A DNA stretch of 64,000 nucleotides from Eledone cirrhosa (GCA_964016885.1 OZ024741.1:174964001-175028000), one strand, 5' to 3'; shown: positions 37,606-55,042, counted from the first letter of the stretch. A program made the numbers and translations. The notes: generated by a model from the letters alone, not told the origin.

Positions 37606-37838
37606 TCTGAGTTTTTCGAATAATAATATTCGATTCGTTTGCAATTATGCAAACAGCCTCTTTAAAGCCATGTACTGATGAAGGGTAATCGCCCAGAAAC
37701 ATTACTGTCTGCCGTTCTGTTTATATGCCAACACAAGAGCGAGAATGACGAAGTTATTCTACTGACTTGGCTTTAAAGAGGCTGTTTGCATAATTGCAAA
37801 TGAATTGAATATTATTATTAATATTCGAAAAACTCAGA
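37606..37838 (+). mobile_element. Fold-back PLE terminal fragment (family B) with hammerhead core
   Basis: Arms 37606-37670 / 37768-37838 enclose CTGATGA-AGGGTAATCGCCCA-GAAAC-ATTACT-GTC; ends at (TA)n. Confidence 0.75.
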
Positions 37839-37953
37839 ATATATATATATATGTATATATAAGTAGAAGGGGTATTTAATTTGTTGGAAGTCCGACAAAT
37901 ATAAATGTTTATAACTGATTTAGAGCACTCAACAAGTTCCCGGAGTTAATATT

Positions 37954-38158
37954 CAATGATATTAGATAAATGGAAACTATATTTATAAAACCATATTTAT
38001 TTTATTATATATATTTCAAGGGTACCAAAACACATTGGTACGCTTTCCTCAGATAAAATATGAGGAAAGCGTACCAATGTGTTTTGGTACCCTTGAAATA
38101 TATATAATAAAATAAATATGGTTTTATAAATATAGTTTCCATTTATTGAATATCATTG
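37954..38158. repeat. Near-perfect hairpin, ~98-bp arms
   Basis: caatgatat...cgctttcctca (loop gataaaata) tgaggaaagcg...atatcattg. Confidence 0.92.
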
Positions 38159-38472
38159 TGTGTATATATATATATATATATATATATATATCATAAATCA
38201 TCTCCTTAGAATTATTAGATAAAATATATACCATTTCCTCTCCCAATTAGCATAATTAACCATATAAAAAATCAATTAGACCAAGCTACAAGAATAAAGG
38301 CTCTTATGAAGAAATCTCCGACAAATAACCGAAAGTGGCCTCTTCGCGGTGGCCCCAATAGAGTATTTACCCAACATTTCGACAGCGTGCAGAAACTGAC
38401 TAAATATACCATCAACCATACACAATTAGGTGCAAATTCAAACTTAGAAGAAATGTGTACATACCGTAATTA

Positions 38473-38553
38473 TATCTCTATCATGGTTTCATCCGTATTT
38501 TTAAACATCCAATTAATAGGATATGTCTGGAGTATCGGATTCATCAGGAGACA
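38473..38553 (-). ncRNA. Type-I hammerhead ribozyme motif with extended stem II (slightly degenerate)
   Basis: Minus strand: tgtctc-CTGATGA-ATCCG[40 nt]CGGAT-GAAAC-CATG-ATA-gagata; one mismatch in stem III. Confidence 0.6.
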
Positions 38554-38744
38554 AACTCAAAATTAGACATTTAGTTTTCCAAAGTGTCGCGCCAAAAATA
38601 GATTCAAAAATGGCTAAGAATCGTGACGTGGCAGTGGTCAAGTTAGAAAGAATGTGATTAGTTGCTTACGGCGGGTAGGCTTGTTGCTAGAAAGCGCAGC
38701 CAAATATCGCCCAATTGTATCTCAAACTAACGGGAGATTATTAA

Positions 38745-39196
38745 ATATAAAGGTTTACATAAACATAAAGTCATAGATATATATGTTGCAACCGGTCACT
38801 TTGTGGCTCAATGAAGAATTAATAAATTAAATAATCAGAGCAATATATCATAAATCATGTCCTTAGAATTATTAGATAAAATATATACCATTTCCTCTCC
38901 CAATTAGCATAATTAACCATATAAAAAATCAATTAGACCAAGCTACCGATTATTTGTCGGATATTTCTTCATAAGAGCCTTTATTCTTGTAGCTTGGTCT
39001 AATTGATTTTTTATATGGTTAATTATGCTAATTGGGAGAGGAAATGGTATATATTTTATCTAATAATTCTAAGGTTATGATTTATGATATATTGCTCTGA
39101 TTATTTAATTTATTAATTCTTCATAGAGCCACAACGTGACCGGTTGCAACATATATATCTATGACTTTATGTTTATGTATATGTAAACCTTTATAT
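38745..39196. repeat. Long inverted repeat (~200-bp arms) of the same family as 38191-38620
   Basis: 38745-38946 is the reverse complement of 38989-39196; ends in (TA)n. Confidence 0.9.
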
Positions 39197-39959
39197 ATAT
39201 ATATATATATATATATATATATATATATAAAGGTTTACATATACATATGTATATGTAAATATATATATAATATATATATATATATATATATATATATATA
39301 TATATATATATATATATATATATATATATATATATATATATATACTTACTAGTCTCGTATCGCCAATAATGACAGTGATGGACGAATTGATATTTTGAGT
39401 TCAGGATTGGTACACCAAGATTATATTATATGCATGACTGAAATAAGAAAATGCATTGCATTGAATGTTAATGTGATTAGATTTTAAAGAGTTACTGACG
39501 GATATATGAATATACAAACACATGGAGTATTACATTATTTATTTATTTAAACATCCGTGTATAGCTAGTGGAAGCGCGTGGCCTAATGGTAAGGGTGTCG
39601 GACTTAGGATCATAATATCTGGGTTCGGTTCTTGGGCTGCGCTACATGTTCTGTTCATTTCACGTTGTTCCAGTATACTCAGCTGAAAAAAAAAATGAGT
39701 ATCAACAATAGCGTCGTATTCAGGGAATAACCATCGCCCCCGCGACAGACTTTTAGACTTTATATATAGTTAGTAAGCCATAAAAGAGTTATCTAATACT
39801 CCTTACAATTAAGAAACAAGAGAGAGAAAGAATCAGTGAAAAAAAAAAGGAGGGGAAAAAGCATGAACAAAGACAAGTATAAAGCAGCTAAAAGTGTCTT
39901 TTCGTAGCTTCCATGTACTGAAAGATATTGTTTATAGCTGGTAAATCTTTTGTAATATA

Positions 39960-40620
39960 TGACACCTCCAAACTAGCTTCAAGATGTTTTCTCTGTAAAG
40001 ATTGTTAGTTTCTACTCTGGGACAAATAGTGCCATAGTGTTTCTGAGCAGTCTCCACAAGAATATAGAGGTGATTGTATATGACCTGTTCGTAATAAAAT
40101 GTAGTTCAACGGTATATGGCTCATTCGAAGCCCATATAGTCCTTTTTTATTGACATTATTTAGTGTCTGATACGCGTTAAACGTTGAAAGATCTGACTTT
40201 GACAATTGGGGATTCAAATTTGGGAGGTTATTTCTAGATTGTTCCCCCAATTTTCCCCATCTTTGACTAATTTGTTTTTGCGAAAGTAATCTCTATCTCT
40301 TATTTCTCTTTGTGTTCCCTCCTTTACTAATTCATCTGCCTTCCTATTTCCCCTAATATTTGTGTATCATTGTAATTTGTTTAATATTTTCTGATAGTTA
40401 TTTTTTATTGGCAAAACGCAACCCTCTACCCGACCTCTTTTTCTTGATTCAAATACATCTAGATTCGATGAGATATCAGTAAATAGAAAAGCTTTTCCCC
40501 ATGGCATTTCTTTATCCGTATCTATGGATAATATCATTCCTATCACTCTACATCAAATATTGTGAAAACTTACTGTAATCTGAAGCTCATATCTATATTA
40601 TTTTCGAAAGACAATAAACC
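39960..40620 (-). mobile_element. Degenerate RNase H-bearing LINE fragment (I-group-like)
   Basis: IRGNRKADEL and HIPLNYIL...SCGDCSETLWHYL remnants. Confidence 0.5.
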
Positions 40621-52405: not shown

Positions 52406-53018
52406 CCATATATATATAATTGAGTTCTTAACACGAAGGATTGATAATGTTTTTGAAAAAACTAATTAACCCACGTGTATATTATTTTTCTTTTCTCGTG
52501 ACTCGTGATTGTCTCCCTTTCCCGCTTCATGACGCTATGATACTTCCTCAGTCAAAGGACTGCTGGAATTTCAAATTTGGCGGTCATTCGATGCGTGAAG
52601 GAACAAATTAGCAGACACGAAAATTAACTGCGGTAAGAAATTTTTCTTATATCAAAGTTTAATGGGCTTCCACTGACGATTTATAAGCGCTCACCTAATT
52701 GTATTCTTACATGAAAATATATTAGGCTTCTACATAAACTGGAAATATTCTCCCAACTTGTAGAATACTTATAATGAAACAATTGTTTGGAAAGAGAGAT
52801 ATATTTTAATTTTAATTATATCTCATATAAAATAATACAACTGGCTTTCCACAAAATACATATAGTTGGCACCCCAGACACTAAATTGGGTTTATACTAA
52901 CGTATAACCTAATGTTTGTTGAGTGAGATGGTTACCAGTCGGAGTTTAGCGTAAAGCTTTCTCTGTTATTGTATTAGTTATATATATATATATATATATA
53001 TATATATATATATATATA

Positions 53019-53229
53019 ATGAAGAAAGTGTGGTAAGGAACCAGGTGGACCATAACGCACCAGAGTACTCGATACTTTGGGTAGTAGAGTGGGTAATAGG
53101 AAAAGGTTCAGGACCCCGACGGCAGAGCTCAAGCCGTTCTGACGGCTATTTCTGGACTATTTCTGAATTTAGTCCAGAAATAGTCGAAACGGCTTGAGCT
53201 CTGCCGTCGGGGTCCTGAACCTTTTCCTA
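53019..53229 (-). mobile_element. Family A fold-back element
   Basis: Inverted arms around 53150; TA tracts on both sides. Confidence 0.75.
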
Positions 53230-53597
53230 TATATATATATAATTGTTTCTACTTCATAAAGGGCCGTAATTCTTTGCTGCAAAGCATGGCGTCTGACTCT
53301 CTACCGATACTGCCAATAATAAGGAGTTGACGGACCCACCATATTTATCAATGCCAGGACCGGTTGTATCTCAACGTACTCAATAGGTAATGTAGAATGT
53401 ATAGTTATTCGCTTCAATACAACACACGCAAACGGATGCCTATAGTAGTTCCCGGACTCGAGTATATATACATATATAAGGACTCTGCCCCCATCACCCT
53501 CTCAGGAATAAGTGGGCGAAGAAGAATATATATACATATATATATATATATATATATATATATTGTTATATATATATATATATATATATATATATAT

Positions 53598-53775
53598 AGG
53601 AACGAGTAGGACCCCGACGGCTGAGCTCAAGCCGTCTCGACAGAATTAGCCGTCGAAACGGCTTGAGCTCAGCCGTCGGGGTCCTACTCGTTCCTATTAC
53701 CCACTCTACAAACCAAAGTATTGAGTACTTTGGTGCGTTATGGTCCACCTGGTTCCTTACCACATTTCCTTCGTT
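53598..53775 (+). mobile_element. Family A fold-back element
   Basis: aggaacgagtaggaccccgacggc...gccgtcggggtcctactcgttcct hairpin followed by the family tail. Confidence 0.75.
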
Positions 53776-53824
53776 ATATATATATATATATATATATATA
53801 TATATATATATATATATATATATA

Positions 53825-54080
53825 TACAAGACGAGTGGTTACTCCTTCATTACGTTTACTGGTTGGTGACGTGCGTTTCGCTACTGATCAGATCGAACTT
53901 TGAGCTGGTCAATAGCGAAACGCGCGTCACCAACCAATAAACGTAATGAAGGAGTAACCACTCGACCTTGTATTATTATATTACACTCTGTCTAGCTCTA
54001 CACCTCGATACTGACGTGAGCCTAAACATCAAGTGCTCATCCGGGCGAACCTAGAGTAACTCCGCGTTACACTCCCTGGA
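53825..54080 (+). mobile_element. Fold-back element homologous to 49341-49540
   Basis: Arms 53825-53883 / 53913-53972; hammerhead 3' half GAAACGCGCGTC. Confidence 0.75.
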
Positions 54081-54132
54081 TATATATATATATATATATA
54101 TATATATATATATATATATTATTATTATTATT

Positions 54133-55042
54133 CGAGGTTAACTTTGCCTTTCATCCCTACGGAGTCGATAAAATAAAGTACCAGTAATACACTGAGATAA
54201 TTGCTGGCCTTGTGCCAAAAGTAGAAACAATTATTATTATTAAGGCTAAGATGGTCGGACGCCATGCTTTCTAGCATAGTTACGTCCCTTTACAGTCTGA
54301 GTTCAAATCCCGCCGAGGTTAACTTTGCCTTTCATCCTTACGGGGTCGATAAAATAAAGTACCAGTAATGTACTGGGAAATTGCTGGCCTTGTGCCAAAA
54401 GTAGAAACAATTATTAAGGCTAAGTTATTATTATTAAGTCTTGTTATTCTGGAATTTCGCCTGTTTATGGAAACTCCAGAGTAACAAGACACATTTTCTA
54501 CACACCTACGCGTTACTCTGTGGGCAATTCCGTGACTATGAGGGTAAGTTACTTTTCAATCCCGAAATTCGGACCACCAGCTAACGATAGCAACCATTGA
54601 ACAAGTATGCACTTCATTTATCAACAACCACACCACACCTTAGTAATTGTTTCTATTTTTGGCACAAGGCCACCAATTATCCCAGTGTATTACTGGTACT
54701 TTATTTTATCGACCTGTAAGGATGAAAGGCAAAGTTAACCTCGGCAGGATTTGACTTCAGACCGTAAAGGGGCGTAACTCTATGATGCAAAGTATGGCAT
54801 CCGACCCTCTACCGATACTGCCAATCCAATACAGTCTAACCACCACATCTTAATAATTGTTTCTACGTTTAGCACAAGGCCAGCAATTACCCAGTGCATT
54901 ACTGGTACTTTATTTTATCGACCCCGTAAGGATGAAAGGCAAAGTTAACCTCGGCGGGATTTGAACTCAGAATGGCAAGGGCCGTAACTCTATGCGTCAA
55001 AGCATGGCGTCCGACCCTCTACCGATACTGCCAATCCACCGC
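54133..55042. mobile_element. Cluster of four OK-like SINE copies (54133-54240 +, 54254-54414 +, 54645-54826 -, 54853-55042 -)
   Basis: Direct alignment by eye to 254-443. Confidence 0.88.

Follow-up and report, generated by a model that had tools for sequence, protein, structure and literature searches.

A 64,000-nucleotide window of the Eledone cirrhosa genome (the whole stretch of DNA analysed; GCA_964016885.1 OZ024741.1:174964001-175028000) raises the question of how so many hammerhead ribozymes came to lie together, eleven having been predicted within 17 kb between nucleotides 37606 and 54490: do they form one system, or have separate elements piled up, and if so by what enzyme? It is highly probable that this region is a nest of independent (TA)n insertions, in which stubs of coding elements and retrozyme-like units were likely pasted by Hydra-type two-start priming.

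Hammerhead folds and their density

A type-I hammerhead fold was found at each of the 11 sites, as predicted, and two further folds, at 38052 (-) and 52673 (+), had been overlooked (Table 1). An exact CUGANGA-core descriptor returned 8 core positions in the region against a mean of 0.07 (maximum 1) in 30 local dinucleotide shuffles and, with one core mismatch allowed, 9 against 0.33 (maximum 2). Hammerhead was absent among the 123 matches at E<=5 in an Rfam scan, and two relaxed hammerhead searches, which missed known CC-core sites, were left out of the counts. The core is non-canonical in 4 of the 11, reading CCGUCGA at 42872 and 49578 and CCGAAGA at 43769 and 50615. The folds at 37675 and 38547 are damaged in the local copies, both having a mutated stem III palindrome, and only 3 bp of stem I are left at 37675 because the fold-back junction cuts this stem. 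Stability z-scores of single-copy folds range from -4.1 to +0.2, several being not unusually stable.

The census descriptor gave 7 matches in 16.9 kb here versus 36 in 400 kb taken from the genome at even spacing, and 0-1 in each of three shuffles. The local density is about 4.6 times that of the genome sample; with roughly one such fold for every 11-12 kb of the genome, the cluster stands out as dense but is not unique, and two of the forty 10-kb stretches sampled carry 6 hammerhead folds each. The original reading as a single system was not upheld: these are independent insertions accumulated at a density found elsewhere in the genome, with no functional unit. Its broader suggestion, a diverse (TA)n-targeting assemblage of Penelope-like element (PLE) and retrozyme-like families with some atypical ribozymes, was borne out, as were the (TA)n or (CA)n neighbours and fold-back ends, except at the family A copy 45248-45683, which stops against the H3 endonuclease tail instead of a repeat.

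Table 1. Elements of the region, in window coordinates; hammerhead positions at the eleven predicted sites are those of C3
Position	Strand	Feature	Details
37607..37838	+	Family A fold-back stub (non-coding tandem family)	core 37675(+); inverted arm cuts stem I; ends in (TA)n
37862..38158	-	Family B2 fold-back stub	hammerhead 38052, CUGAGGA
38192..39191	-	Family B non-coding tandem element	657-bp unit, ~1.15 units; inverted arm 38947-39191; short end left, long end right
38473-38553	-	Family B hammerhead in 38192..39191	38547(-); 48-nt stem II
42808..43078	+	Family H2 pLTR stub of coding Hydra element	CCGUCGA at 42872(+), extended stem II; long end at (CA)n
43440..45253	-	Family H3, 5'-truncated coding Hydra copy	GIY-YIG tail 45243-44998, 3' UTR; long end at (TA)n
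43769	-	H3 hammerhead	CCGAAGA core, 81-nt stem II
44036-44525		Unrelated 491-bp insert splitting H3 copy	
45248..45683	-	Family A copy, 372-bp unit	intact canonical hammerhead at 45475(-)
~98 nt ahead of GAAA		U2-promoter-like element in family A copy 45248..45683	
45262-45328		SINE fragment inserted in family A copy	
46317..46646	.	Family E fold-back: two pLTR stubs, coding Hydra element	hammerheads 46402(-) and 46495(+); one short, one long end
46652..47554	-	Family F non-coding tandem element	537-538-bp unit, 1.5 units; inverted arm 47459-47554
47032	-	Family F hammerhead	long intramolecular stem III
48555..49224	-	Family G non-coding tandem element	unit ~510-530 bp; inverted arm 49104-49224
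48890	-	Family G hammerhead	5-bp stem III hairpin
49343..50400	-	Family H1 3' UTR of coding Hydra element	includes 96-bp tandem; long end at (TA)n
49578	-	H1 hammerhead	CCGUCGA, 60-nt stem II
50535..51886	-	Family I 1.3-kb AT-rich 3' UTR, coding Hydra element	CCGAAGA hammerhead 50615(-); short end at (TA)n/(CA)n
51890..52407	-	Family H1 reverse transcriptase fragment, Hydra clade	DKT motif to RT motif 3; reads ADKT
52420..52979	+	Family J non-coding tandem element	994-bp unit, 0.56 unit; hammerhead 52673, CUGACGA, 96-nt stem II
53019..53774	.	Two family K fold-back stubs	53019-53230 and 53599-53774, cut within stem II
53827..54080	+	Second H1-family fold-back stub	cut within stem II

Family G is 74% like family F. 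The family K tail occurs again at 45760-45934, and longer K copies mostly have a U3-A8 core, matching a variant published for PLEs (PMC4209133, available text).

Coding and non-coding families

The families had been labelled non-coding, which is correct for A, B, F, G and J and wrong for half of those so labelled. By their sequences H1, H2, H3, I and E are the 3' ends of coding Hydra-clade Penelope-like elements, that is, 3' UTR or pLTR stubs. RW[KR]A and [AS]DKT, in which DKG has become DKT, occur in the ORFs of H1, H2, H3, H4 and E, the reverse transcriptase (RT) of family I being known as fragments, and at the C-terminus a GIY-YIG with CxCX5C linker, CxxC and CxH is present (loci L021, L034, L251, L252, L039); the ORFs showing these motifs are complete for H1, H3 and H4 and partial for H2 and E. 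The clade was called from these protein motifs, likeness to Hydra-1_Obim being judged by eye; the RT tree covers this genome's sequences only. Pfam profiles gave no match for the RT, the endonuclease or two full ORFs. Among loci chosen by DNA, an ORF is linked at 7/21 for I, 5/26 for E and two loci for H2 (3/22 once L039, obtained via its RT, is counted). H3 copies are 95-98% identical, with intact ORFs of 805-812 aa. Most copies end in simple repeat, for example in H2 (28/28), H3 (33/34) and E (31/35).

Remnants of Penelope/Naiad type had been proposed; the Naiad half fails and this identity was rejected, the motif being DKT and not DKA, RWK being present and GIY-YIG being C-terminal, not N-terminal; Naiads are further marked by having no canonical hammerhead. 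The RT and the GIY-YIG tail, each noted upstream of one ribozyme on the same strand, are both present, and the tail does belong with the hammerhead at 43769. The RT does not belong with 50615: the hammerhead of its own family is that at 49578, and the adjacency of 51890-52407 to 50615 joins H1 and I.

Core position 4 is C in 10/12 copies of H1, 35/38 of H2, 34/34 of H3 (ORFs intact) and 29/31 of I, while family E is canonical (CUGANGA) in 38/39. U4C is fixed in these four coding families, two of which also have A6U. A single origin of U4C was unsupported, H3, I and H1/H2 lying apart in the RT tree and canonical cores occurring within the H1/H2 group; this tree is without outgroup, its groups were read without a formal clade test and the family I RT is tentative. 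H1 and H2 possess a stem II of about 25 bp that covaries across genomic copies: among 16 subfamily representatives 86.7% of cells are paired and 19/29 pairs have changed on both sides, with 0/500 shuffles as high and slid controls at 30-35%, the structure being drawn from the same 16 sequences. A multi-way junction was considered for this stem and discarded, the alignment favouring a single long imperfect hairpin.

U4C is known in a viroid, with reduced activity; A6C, and separately an insertion after A6, have also been described, with low activity (PMC3088659, available text). In the literature outside most subscription journals, Repbase and Dfam, no A6U, no U4C+A6U pair and no fixation of either in retrotransposon families numbering thousands of copies was found, nor a covarying stem II of ~25 bp, RCTC...GAG hairpins or octopus hammerheads like these. 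The fixed U4C and U4C+A6U cores would probably weaken or silence cleavage, transposition continuing.

Families A (372 bp), G (529), F (537), B (657) and J (994 bp) are, as read from the DNA, non-coding self-tandem hammerhead units, retrozyme-like, of 31-36% GC and with one type-I hammerhead per tandem unit, the core being canonical in the majority of copies. No linked ORF was found at any of their 95 loci, and the five units gave no tblastn match, no Hydra protein match and no ATG ORF above 65 aa (longest 47-65 aa). The main insertion exceeds one unit in B (20/29), F (22/29), G (18/29), J (10/24) and A (12/29), with a maximum of 2.7 units, these loci being best-scoring matches and so biased toward long copies. 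The families are not all merely pLTRs, since these five amplify as ORF-less self-tandem units.

In 18/19 copies of family A, 19-22 of 25 positions agree with the U2 -58 element, and an octamer is present in 12/19; the family A element resembles this genome's U2 upstream sequence; family A would probably start its own transcription from this U2-like promoter. An snRNA-type promoter in sense was seen in A only, being absent from B, F, G and J, with B, F, J and the coding families at shuffle level. Newt satellite 2 and schistosome hammerhead SINEs likewise carry an in-unit promoter ahead of the hammerhead (PMC6765202, available text); that of family A, in a like position, is putative and U2-like.

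Among 54 private variants common to units or arms of one insertion, A>G is in excess (13/54 versus 59/635, p=0.002). The strand split (A>G 13, T>C 8; p=0.38) is not strand-specific, and the excess is therefore no demonstration of a circular template.

Insertion scars and proposed priming

Both kinds of family insert into (TA)n, and their 3' ends are bimodal, with two fixed ends per family, coding and non-coding alike; the exception is J, with a single main 3' end. Just beyond most ends, in read-through sequence, lies a WATATW...RCTC-N-GAG hairpin, placed between -2 and +10 nt relative to the end for 13 of the 18 end clusters having a read-through reference, as against 6% of positions in the very same references. 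The rule fails in five: both A ends, H3 short, E long (GCTC present, its partner far off) and G long (reference copy mutated). One long and one short end are paired in 69/72 fold-backs overall, made up of 56/59 classifiable fold-backs of E, H2, B, F and G (p ~1e-13 versus even odds, 63 pairs with an unclassified end being excluded), to which the non-coding B, F and G contribute 37/39, and 13/13 in H3. H1 fold-backs gave one discordant and two long-long pairs, the reference being noisy owing to the 96-bp tandem. The non-coding insertions form short, scattered arrays in which the 3' ends are fixed, the 5' ends vary and 5' inversions occur; no poly(A) tail was seen in them.

The shared (TA)n targets, two 3' ends, hairpin and long/short pairing point to two-start, two-strand priming by a Hydra enzyme, the steps of which we infer from these scars, the coding status of the families and the tandem units. 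The enzyme would nick both strands of a TA array, and two subunits would each begin a cDNA on one and the same RNA, the first from hairpin 1, the second from hairpin 2; head-to-head joining of these two truncated products would then leave a fold-back with a one-sided tail. Every new end would bring fresh (TA)n, hence the nesting. The non-coding units would retain hammerhead and start hairpins, borrowing the enzyme; apart from nested fragments, sequence tracing linked no unit to any coding Hydra locus among those sampled, so the carrier is deduced from the scars. As a copy always loses its start hairpin, more-than-unit copying is needed for continued mobility, for which the likeliest route would be hammerhead cleavage followed by circularisation, with a linear tandem template of about equal probability.

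If every family were the pLTR stub of a coding element with an unsampled body, no independent non-coding amplification would be called for. This holds for H1, H2, H3, I and E, and the flanks examined extend only 1.5 kb when the family I 3' UTR alone takes up 1.3 kb. Upstream of the hammerhead in A, B, F, G and J, however, the family's own unit recurs with a fixed period, 2-3 units stand head to tail at L171, L175, L200 and L282, and an ORF is linked at 0/95 loci against 15/69 for H2, I and E, which leaves such a general explanation very improbable. Improbable too is the spread of the non-coding units as DNA satellites or by a LINE enzyme, with (TA)n arrays common with Hydra by proximity only: the dispersed short arrays, end structure, 5' inversions, common end hairpin, long/short pairing in B, F and G and want of poly(A) speak against it, even though homology to sampled coding Hydra loci is confined to nested fragments and local tandem amplification of pLTR-derived units is discussed by Li et al. 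2026 (bioRxiv 10.64898/2026.07.22.740005, available text). That the ribozymes cluster here through Naiad activity or host selection and serve a function of their own has the least to be said for it and is most improbable; the raised density and the liking of Naiads for (TA)n would fit, but other random stretches are equally dense, several local copies are truncated or mutated in core stems, and the protein layout is unlike that of Naiads.

Known relatives and significance

Two-start priming by a Hydra-type enzyme may be set beside known systems, as far as the available text of the cited papers goes. With the Hydra clade, including Hydra-1_Obim (PMC8557442), the coding families share RWK, DKT, the CxCX5C linker, a C-terminal GIY-YIG with CxxC and CxH, the (TA)n target, a type-I hammerhead, its stem III palindromic, close to the 3' end, an inverted 5' copy and a tail at one end only. 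Every one of the 26 rows for Hydra hammerheads in its File S2 reads CUGANGA, whereas four families here are fixed for CCG; tails are 70-175 nt here versus 30-40; and, their ORFs spanning 805-894 aa and their 3' UTRs reaching 1-2 kb, these elements exceed the "generally <3 kb" given there. That paper gives one octopus Hydra family alone.

Metazoan non-LTR retrozymes have been proposed as non-autonomous PLE derivatives (PMC7229834; bioRxiv 10.64898/2026.07.22.740005), and share with our units non-coding, low-GC tandem structure and one type-I hammerhead each. A unit of 150-450 bp (PMC7229834) fits A (372) and is exceeded by B, F, G and J (529-994 bp); Li, Clavereau and Pollet 2026 report 51-972 bp (same preprint). 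Arrays here are short, at most 2.7 units sampled, and unlike in published retrozymes the cleavage and circles of these units are predictions. The PLE link here comes from common scars and the end hairpin, the published one from co-occurrence or pLTR homology.

In PAc Poseidon of Anolis (PMC11167929) the RT, a predicted dimer, starts at two internal stem-loop sites and cuts both strands, and the hammerhead is dispensable for insertion in vitro. The likeness lies in two internal RT starts defining the tail and in an AT-rich target. Both starts there fall in one AC-rich stem-loop within the ORF start, whereas in the present families every end possesses a separate RCTC...GAG hairpin, the two lying 70-175 nt apart and being common to the non-coding passengers.

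The element kinds are already known and retrozymes as non-autonomous PLEs are published; the value of the locus therefore lies in the tests that it offers and not in the clustering. Why PLEs carry hammerheads and how they choose internal start sites are open questions, for which coding and non-coding families with a common end signal stand here as adjacent natural test cases, with a graded core series (CUGACGA, CCGACGA, CCGAAGA, CCGUCGA) on one conserved scaffold. We tentatively raise the possibility that the RCTC...GAG hairpin pair is a portable start signal, any RNA bearing it being mobilised, and that several successful lineages have seen their hammerhead drift, on more than one occasion, from CUGA through CCGA to CCGU and become a scaffold that depends on protein or does not cleave, its long stem II being still under selection. 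Should these hairpins prove to be the start signal, the Hydra enzyme would be steered by a short RNA tag, and the retrozyme-PLE link would pass from correlation to mechanism; if the U4C+A6U cores are dead, cleavage would be unnecessary for transposition and the circle model would not be general.

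Hammerhead folds in the window and in the genome

All 11 hammerhead sites put forward by the original prediction fit the type-I fold, four of them with CCG cores, and two additional hammerheads were located (see the table, in which hammerheads are numbered by the position of C3). With exact cores, a type-I descriptor matches 8 positions in 37606–54490 against 0.07 expected from 30 shuffles, and with one core mismatch allowed, 9 against 0.33 (30 shuffles). No hammerhead was found with Rfam.

The density was compared with that of forty evenly spaced 10-kb stretches of the 3.0 Gb genome using the census descriptor. 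These contain 36 matches, two of which look like chance, against 0–1 in three shuffles; if the sample is representative, the genome carries about one fold per 11–12 kb, or roughly 250,000 in all. The same descriptor gives 7 matches in the 16.9 kb of 37606–54490 and 6 in each of two sampled stretches, and the cluster in the window is thus dense, not unique.

Several other repeats share the window. The 491-bp dispersed repeat, flanked by 10-bp direct repeats and possessing an A-rich end, is inserted in the 3' UTR of the local copy of family H3 and is missing from other H3 copies. A SINE-like repeat is very abundant (38 matches in the 400-kb sample). A broken ORF with relatives in four loci has no Pfam match; we take its KPDG ... 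WD/YD ... AVET pattern to be that of the restriction-like endonuclease of CRE/NeSL-type non-LTR elements. A degraded LINE 3' end is presumably RTE-like.

Features located in the window
Feature	Position	Strand	Remark
Canonical type-I hammerhead, 40-nt stem II	32947	+	outside 37606–54490
Additional hammerheads	38052; 52673		
Degraded LINE 3' end	40920–41310	+	presumably RTE-like
491-bp dispersed repeat	44036–44525; 57856–58320; 63589–64000		first copy in H3 3' UTR
SINE-like repeat pieces	45262–45328; 53254–53317; 54133–54418; 54640–55045		
Broken ORF, KPDG ... WD/YD ... AVET	47697–48204	+	
Antisense match to U2 upstream element, family G	48887–48910	+	strand opposite hammerhead; across stem I and core start
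Family K stubs	53019–53230; 53599–53774; 45760–45934		

Coding Hydra-clade elements and non-coding tandem units

From 20,480 first-look candidates for the RT fragment of the window, 150 relatives were scored. The long ORFs (805–894 aa) possess RWK, DKT, YRDD and CxCX5C motifs together with a C-terminal IVY-YIG, CxxC and CxH, a set matching the signature described for the Hydra clade of Penelope-like elements (PLEs) (Craig et al. 2021, PMC8557442); judged by eye, the proteins resemble Hydra-1_Obim. The proposed Naiad-type remnants were not borne out: the motifs and C-terminal endonuclease are those of Hydra, and the Naiad layout differs. Families H1, H2, H3, I and E are hammerhead-bearing 3' ends of such coding elements. 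Since H1 unites the RT with the tail at 49343–50400 and the hammerhead at 49578, the RT at 51890 adjoins the 3' UTR of a different family and is not the partner of the adjoining ribozyme. The GIY-YIG tail and the ribozyme downstream of it do belong together, being joined in H3 (hammerhead 43769). Linkage to an ORF was seen at 3/22 loci of H2, 7/21 of I and 5/26 of E; loci of H1 and H3 were picked by protein, so that their linkage counts are not independent. A further young Hydra family, H4 (L033–L036), has a canonical core and intact ORFs of 893 aa that are nearly identical to one another.

In families A, B, F, G and J the hammerhead is preceded by another copy of its own unit, with periods of 372, 657, 537, 529 and 994 bp, respectively. 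These retrozyme-like units are non-coding: none of 95 loci is ORF-linked, and no ATG frame is longer than 65 aa. The main insertion exceeds one unit in 82/140 loci, reaching 2.7 units, among best-scoring loci that are biased towards length. F and G are 74% alike, both with intramolecular stem III helices, and the stem III of A, B and J is palindromic, of the dimer type. Units of B, F and G share a 16-nt motif (GGCTGY.VTTTYTAGYA) 40–50 nt past the long end, the longer of two fixed 3' ends, despite B being otherwise unrelated to F and G.

Family A contains, approximately 98 nt before GAAA, an element that agrees at 19–22 of 25 positions (18/19 copies) with the -58 region of a U2 gene, and an octamer in 12/19 copies; judged from these promoter-like sequences, transcription would start just ahead of stem I. 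The antisense match in family G has a median score of 32 against a shuffle maximum of 26, seven of its letters being dictated by the core itself; no such match was found in F. U2 snRNA genes lie in tandem arrays at C3:307.35–307.45 Mb and C13:36.17–36.18 Mb, with periods of about 2.2 and 2.5 kb.

Insertion ends and putative start hairpins

The 3' ends within simple repeats fall at two sites in nine of ten families, and at one in J. In 13 of 18 end clusters the read-through sequence contains an RCTC-N-GAG hairpin whose first position lies between -2 and +10 nt relative to the end. The hairpin occurs in five coding families (H1, H2, H3, E and I) and four non-coding ones (B, F, G and J), and is absent from A. 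For arms joined head to head with both ends classifiable, a long end was paired with a short one in 56/59 cases for E, H2, B, F and G, in 13/13 for H3 and in 1/3 for H1. A further 63 pairs, of which 47 belong to H1, had an end that could not be assigned and are not counted here. Units or arms of one insertion have 54 private variants in common; the editing-type (A>G) changes among them, sought as a mark of a circular template, are not strand-specific.

Another PLE has two internal start sites, cuts both strands and is predicted to act as a dimer (Frangieh et al., PMC11167929). The simplest reading is that a Hydra enzyme would prime at two starts on both strands of a TA array, serving coding elements and non-coding units alike. 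Each copy would then lack the hairpin from which it started and would need more-than-unit copying to regain it, which the circle model (Cervera and de la Pena, PMC7229834) would provide.

Variant ribozyme cores

The canonical core is CUGANGA. C occupies core position 4 (U4C) in 10/12 copies of H1, 35/38 of H2, 34/34 of H3 and 29/31 of I, as against 2/196 in six other families, and U occupies position 6 (A6U) in 11/12 of H1 and 38/38 of H2. The CCG-type core of H1, H2, H3 and I is found in none of the 26 Hydra rows of File S2 of Craig et al. (PMC8557442). An unrooted tree of 40 RT rows does not unite the CC-core families in a single group. In family K, the stem III hairpin of the longer copies measures 6 bp, and the cores of these copies are variations around U3–A8.

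An imperfect stem II of about 25 bp characterises the group that includes H1 and H2; its pattern has 3,581 exact matches in contrast to 0 for the reversed control. Among 16 subfamily representatives the core strand reads CUGAGGA, CUGACGA, CUGAAAGA, CCGACGA, CCGAAGA, CCGAAGGA or CCGUCGA. Stems I, II and III covary, with two-sided changes at 19/29 pairs (0/500 shuffles), and the covariation on which the predicted folds depended was thus found in this group.

U4C reduces the activity of a viroid hammerhead, and low activity accompanies changes at A6 (Perreault et al. 2011, PMC3088659), which makes weakened cleavage on a conserved scaffold the likelier reading of these cores. Cleavage in the variant-core families may alternatively be assisted by protein, as for PAc (PMC11167929). 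U4C is no bar to transposition, since H3 is young, with copies 95–98% identical and ORFs intact.

Earlier publications describe hammerhead-bearing Hydra elements, one of them an octopus family (Craig et al. 2021, PMC8557442), as well as non-LTR retrozymes (Cervera and de la Pena 2020, PMC7229834), and a 2026 preprint argues that retrozymes are non-autonomous PLEs (Li, Clavereau and Pollet, bioRxiv 10.64898/2026.07.22.740005). Hammerheads go unmentioned in the main text of a repeat annotation of Octopus vulgaris. The assemblage is real and mostly accounted for by known kinds of element; what remains new is, first, that the fixed U4C/A6U series sits on a long stem II that covaries and, second, the pairing of long and short ends, here quantified and common to carriers and passengers.
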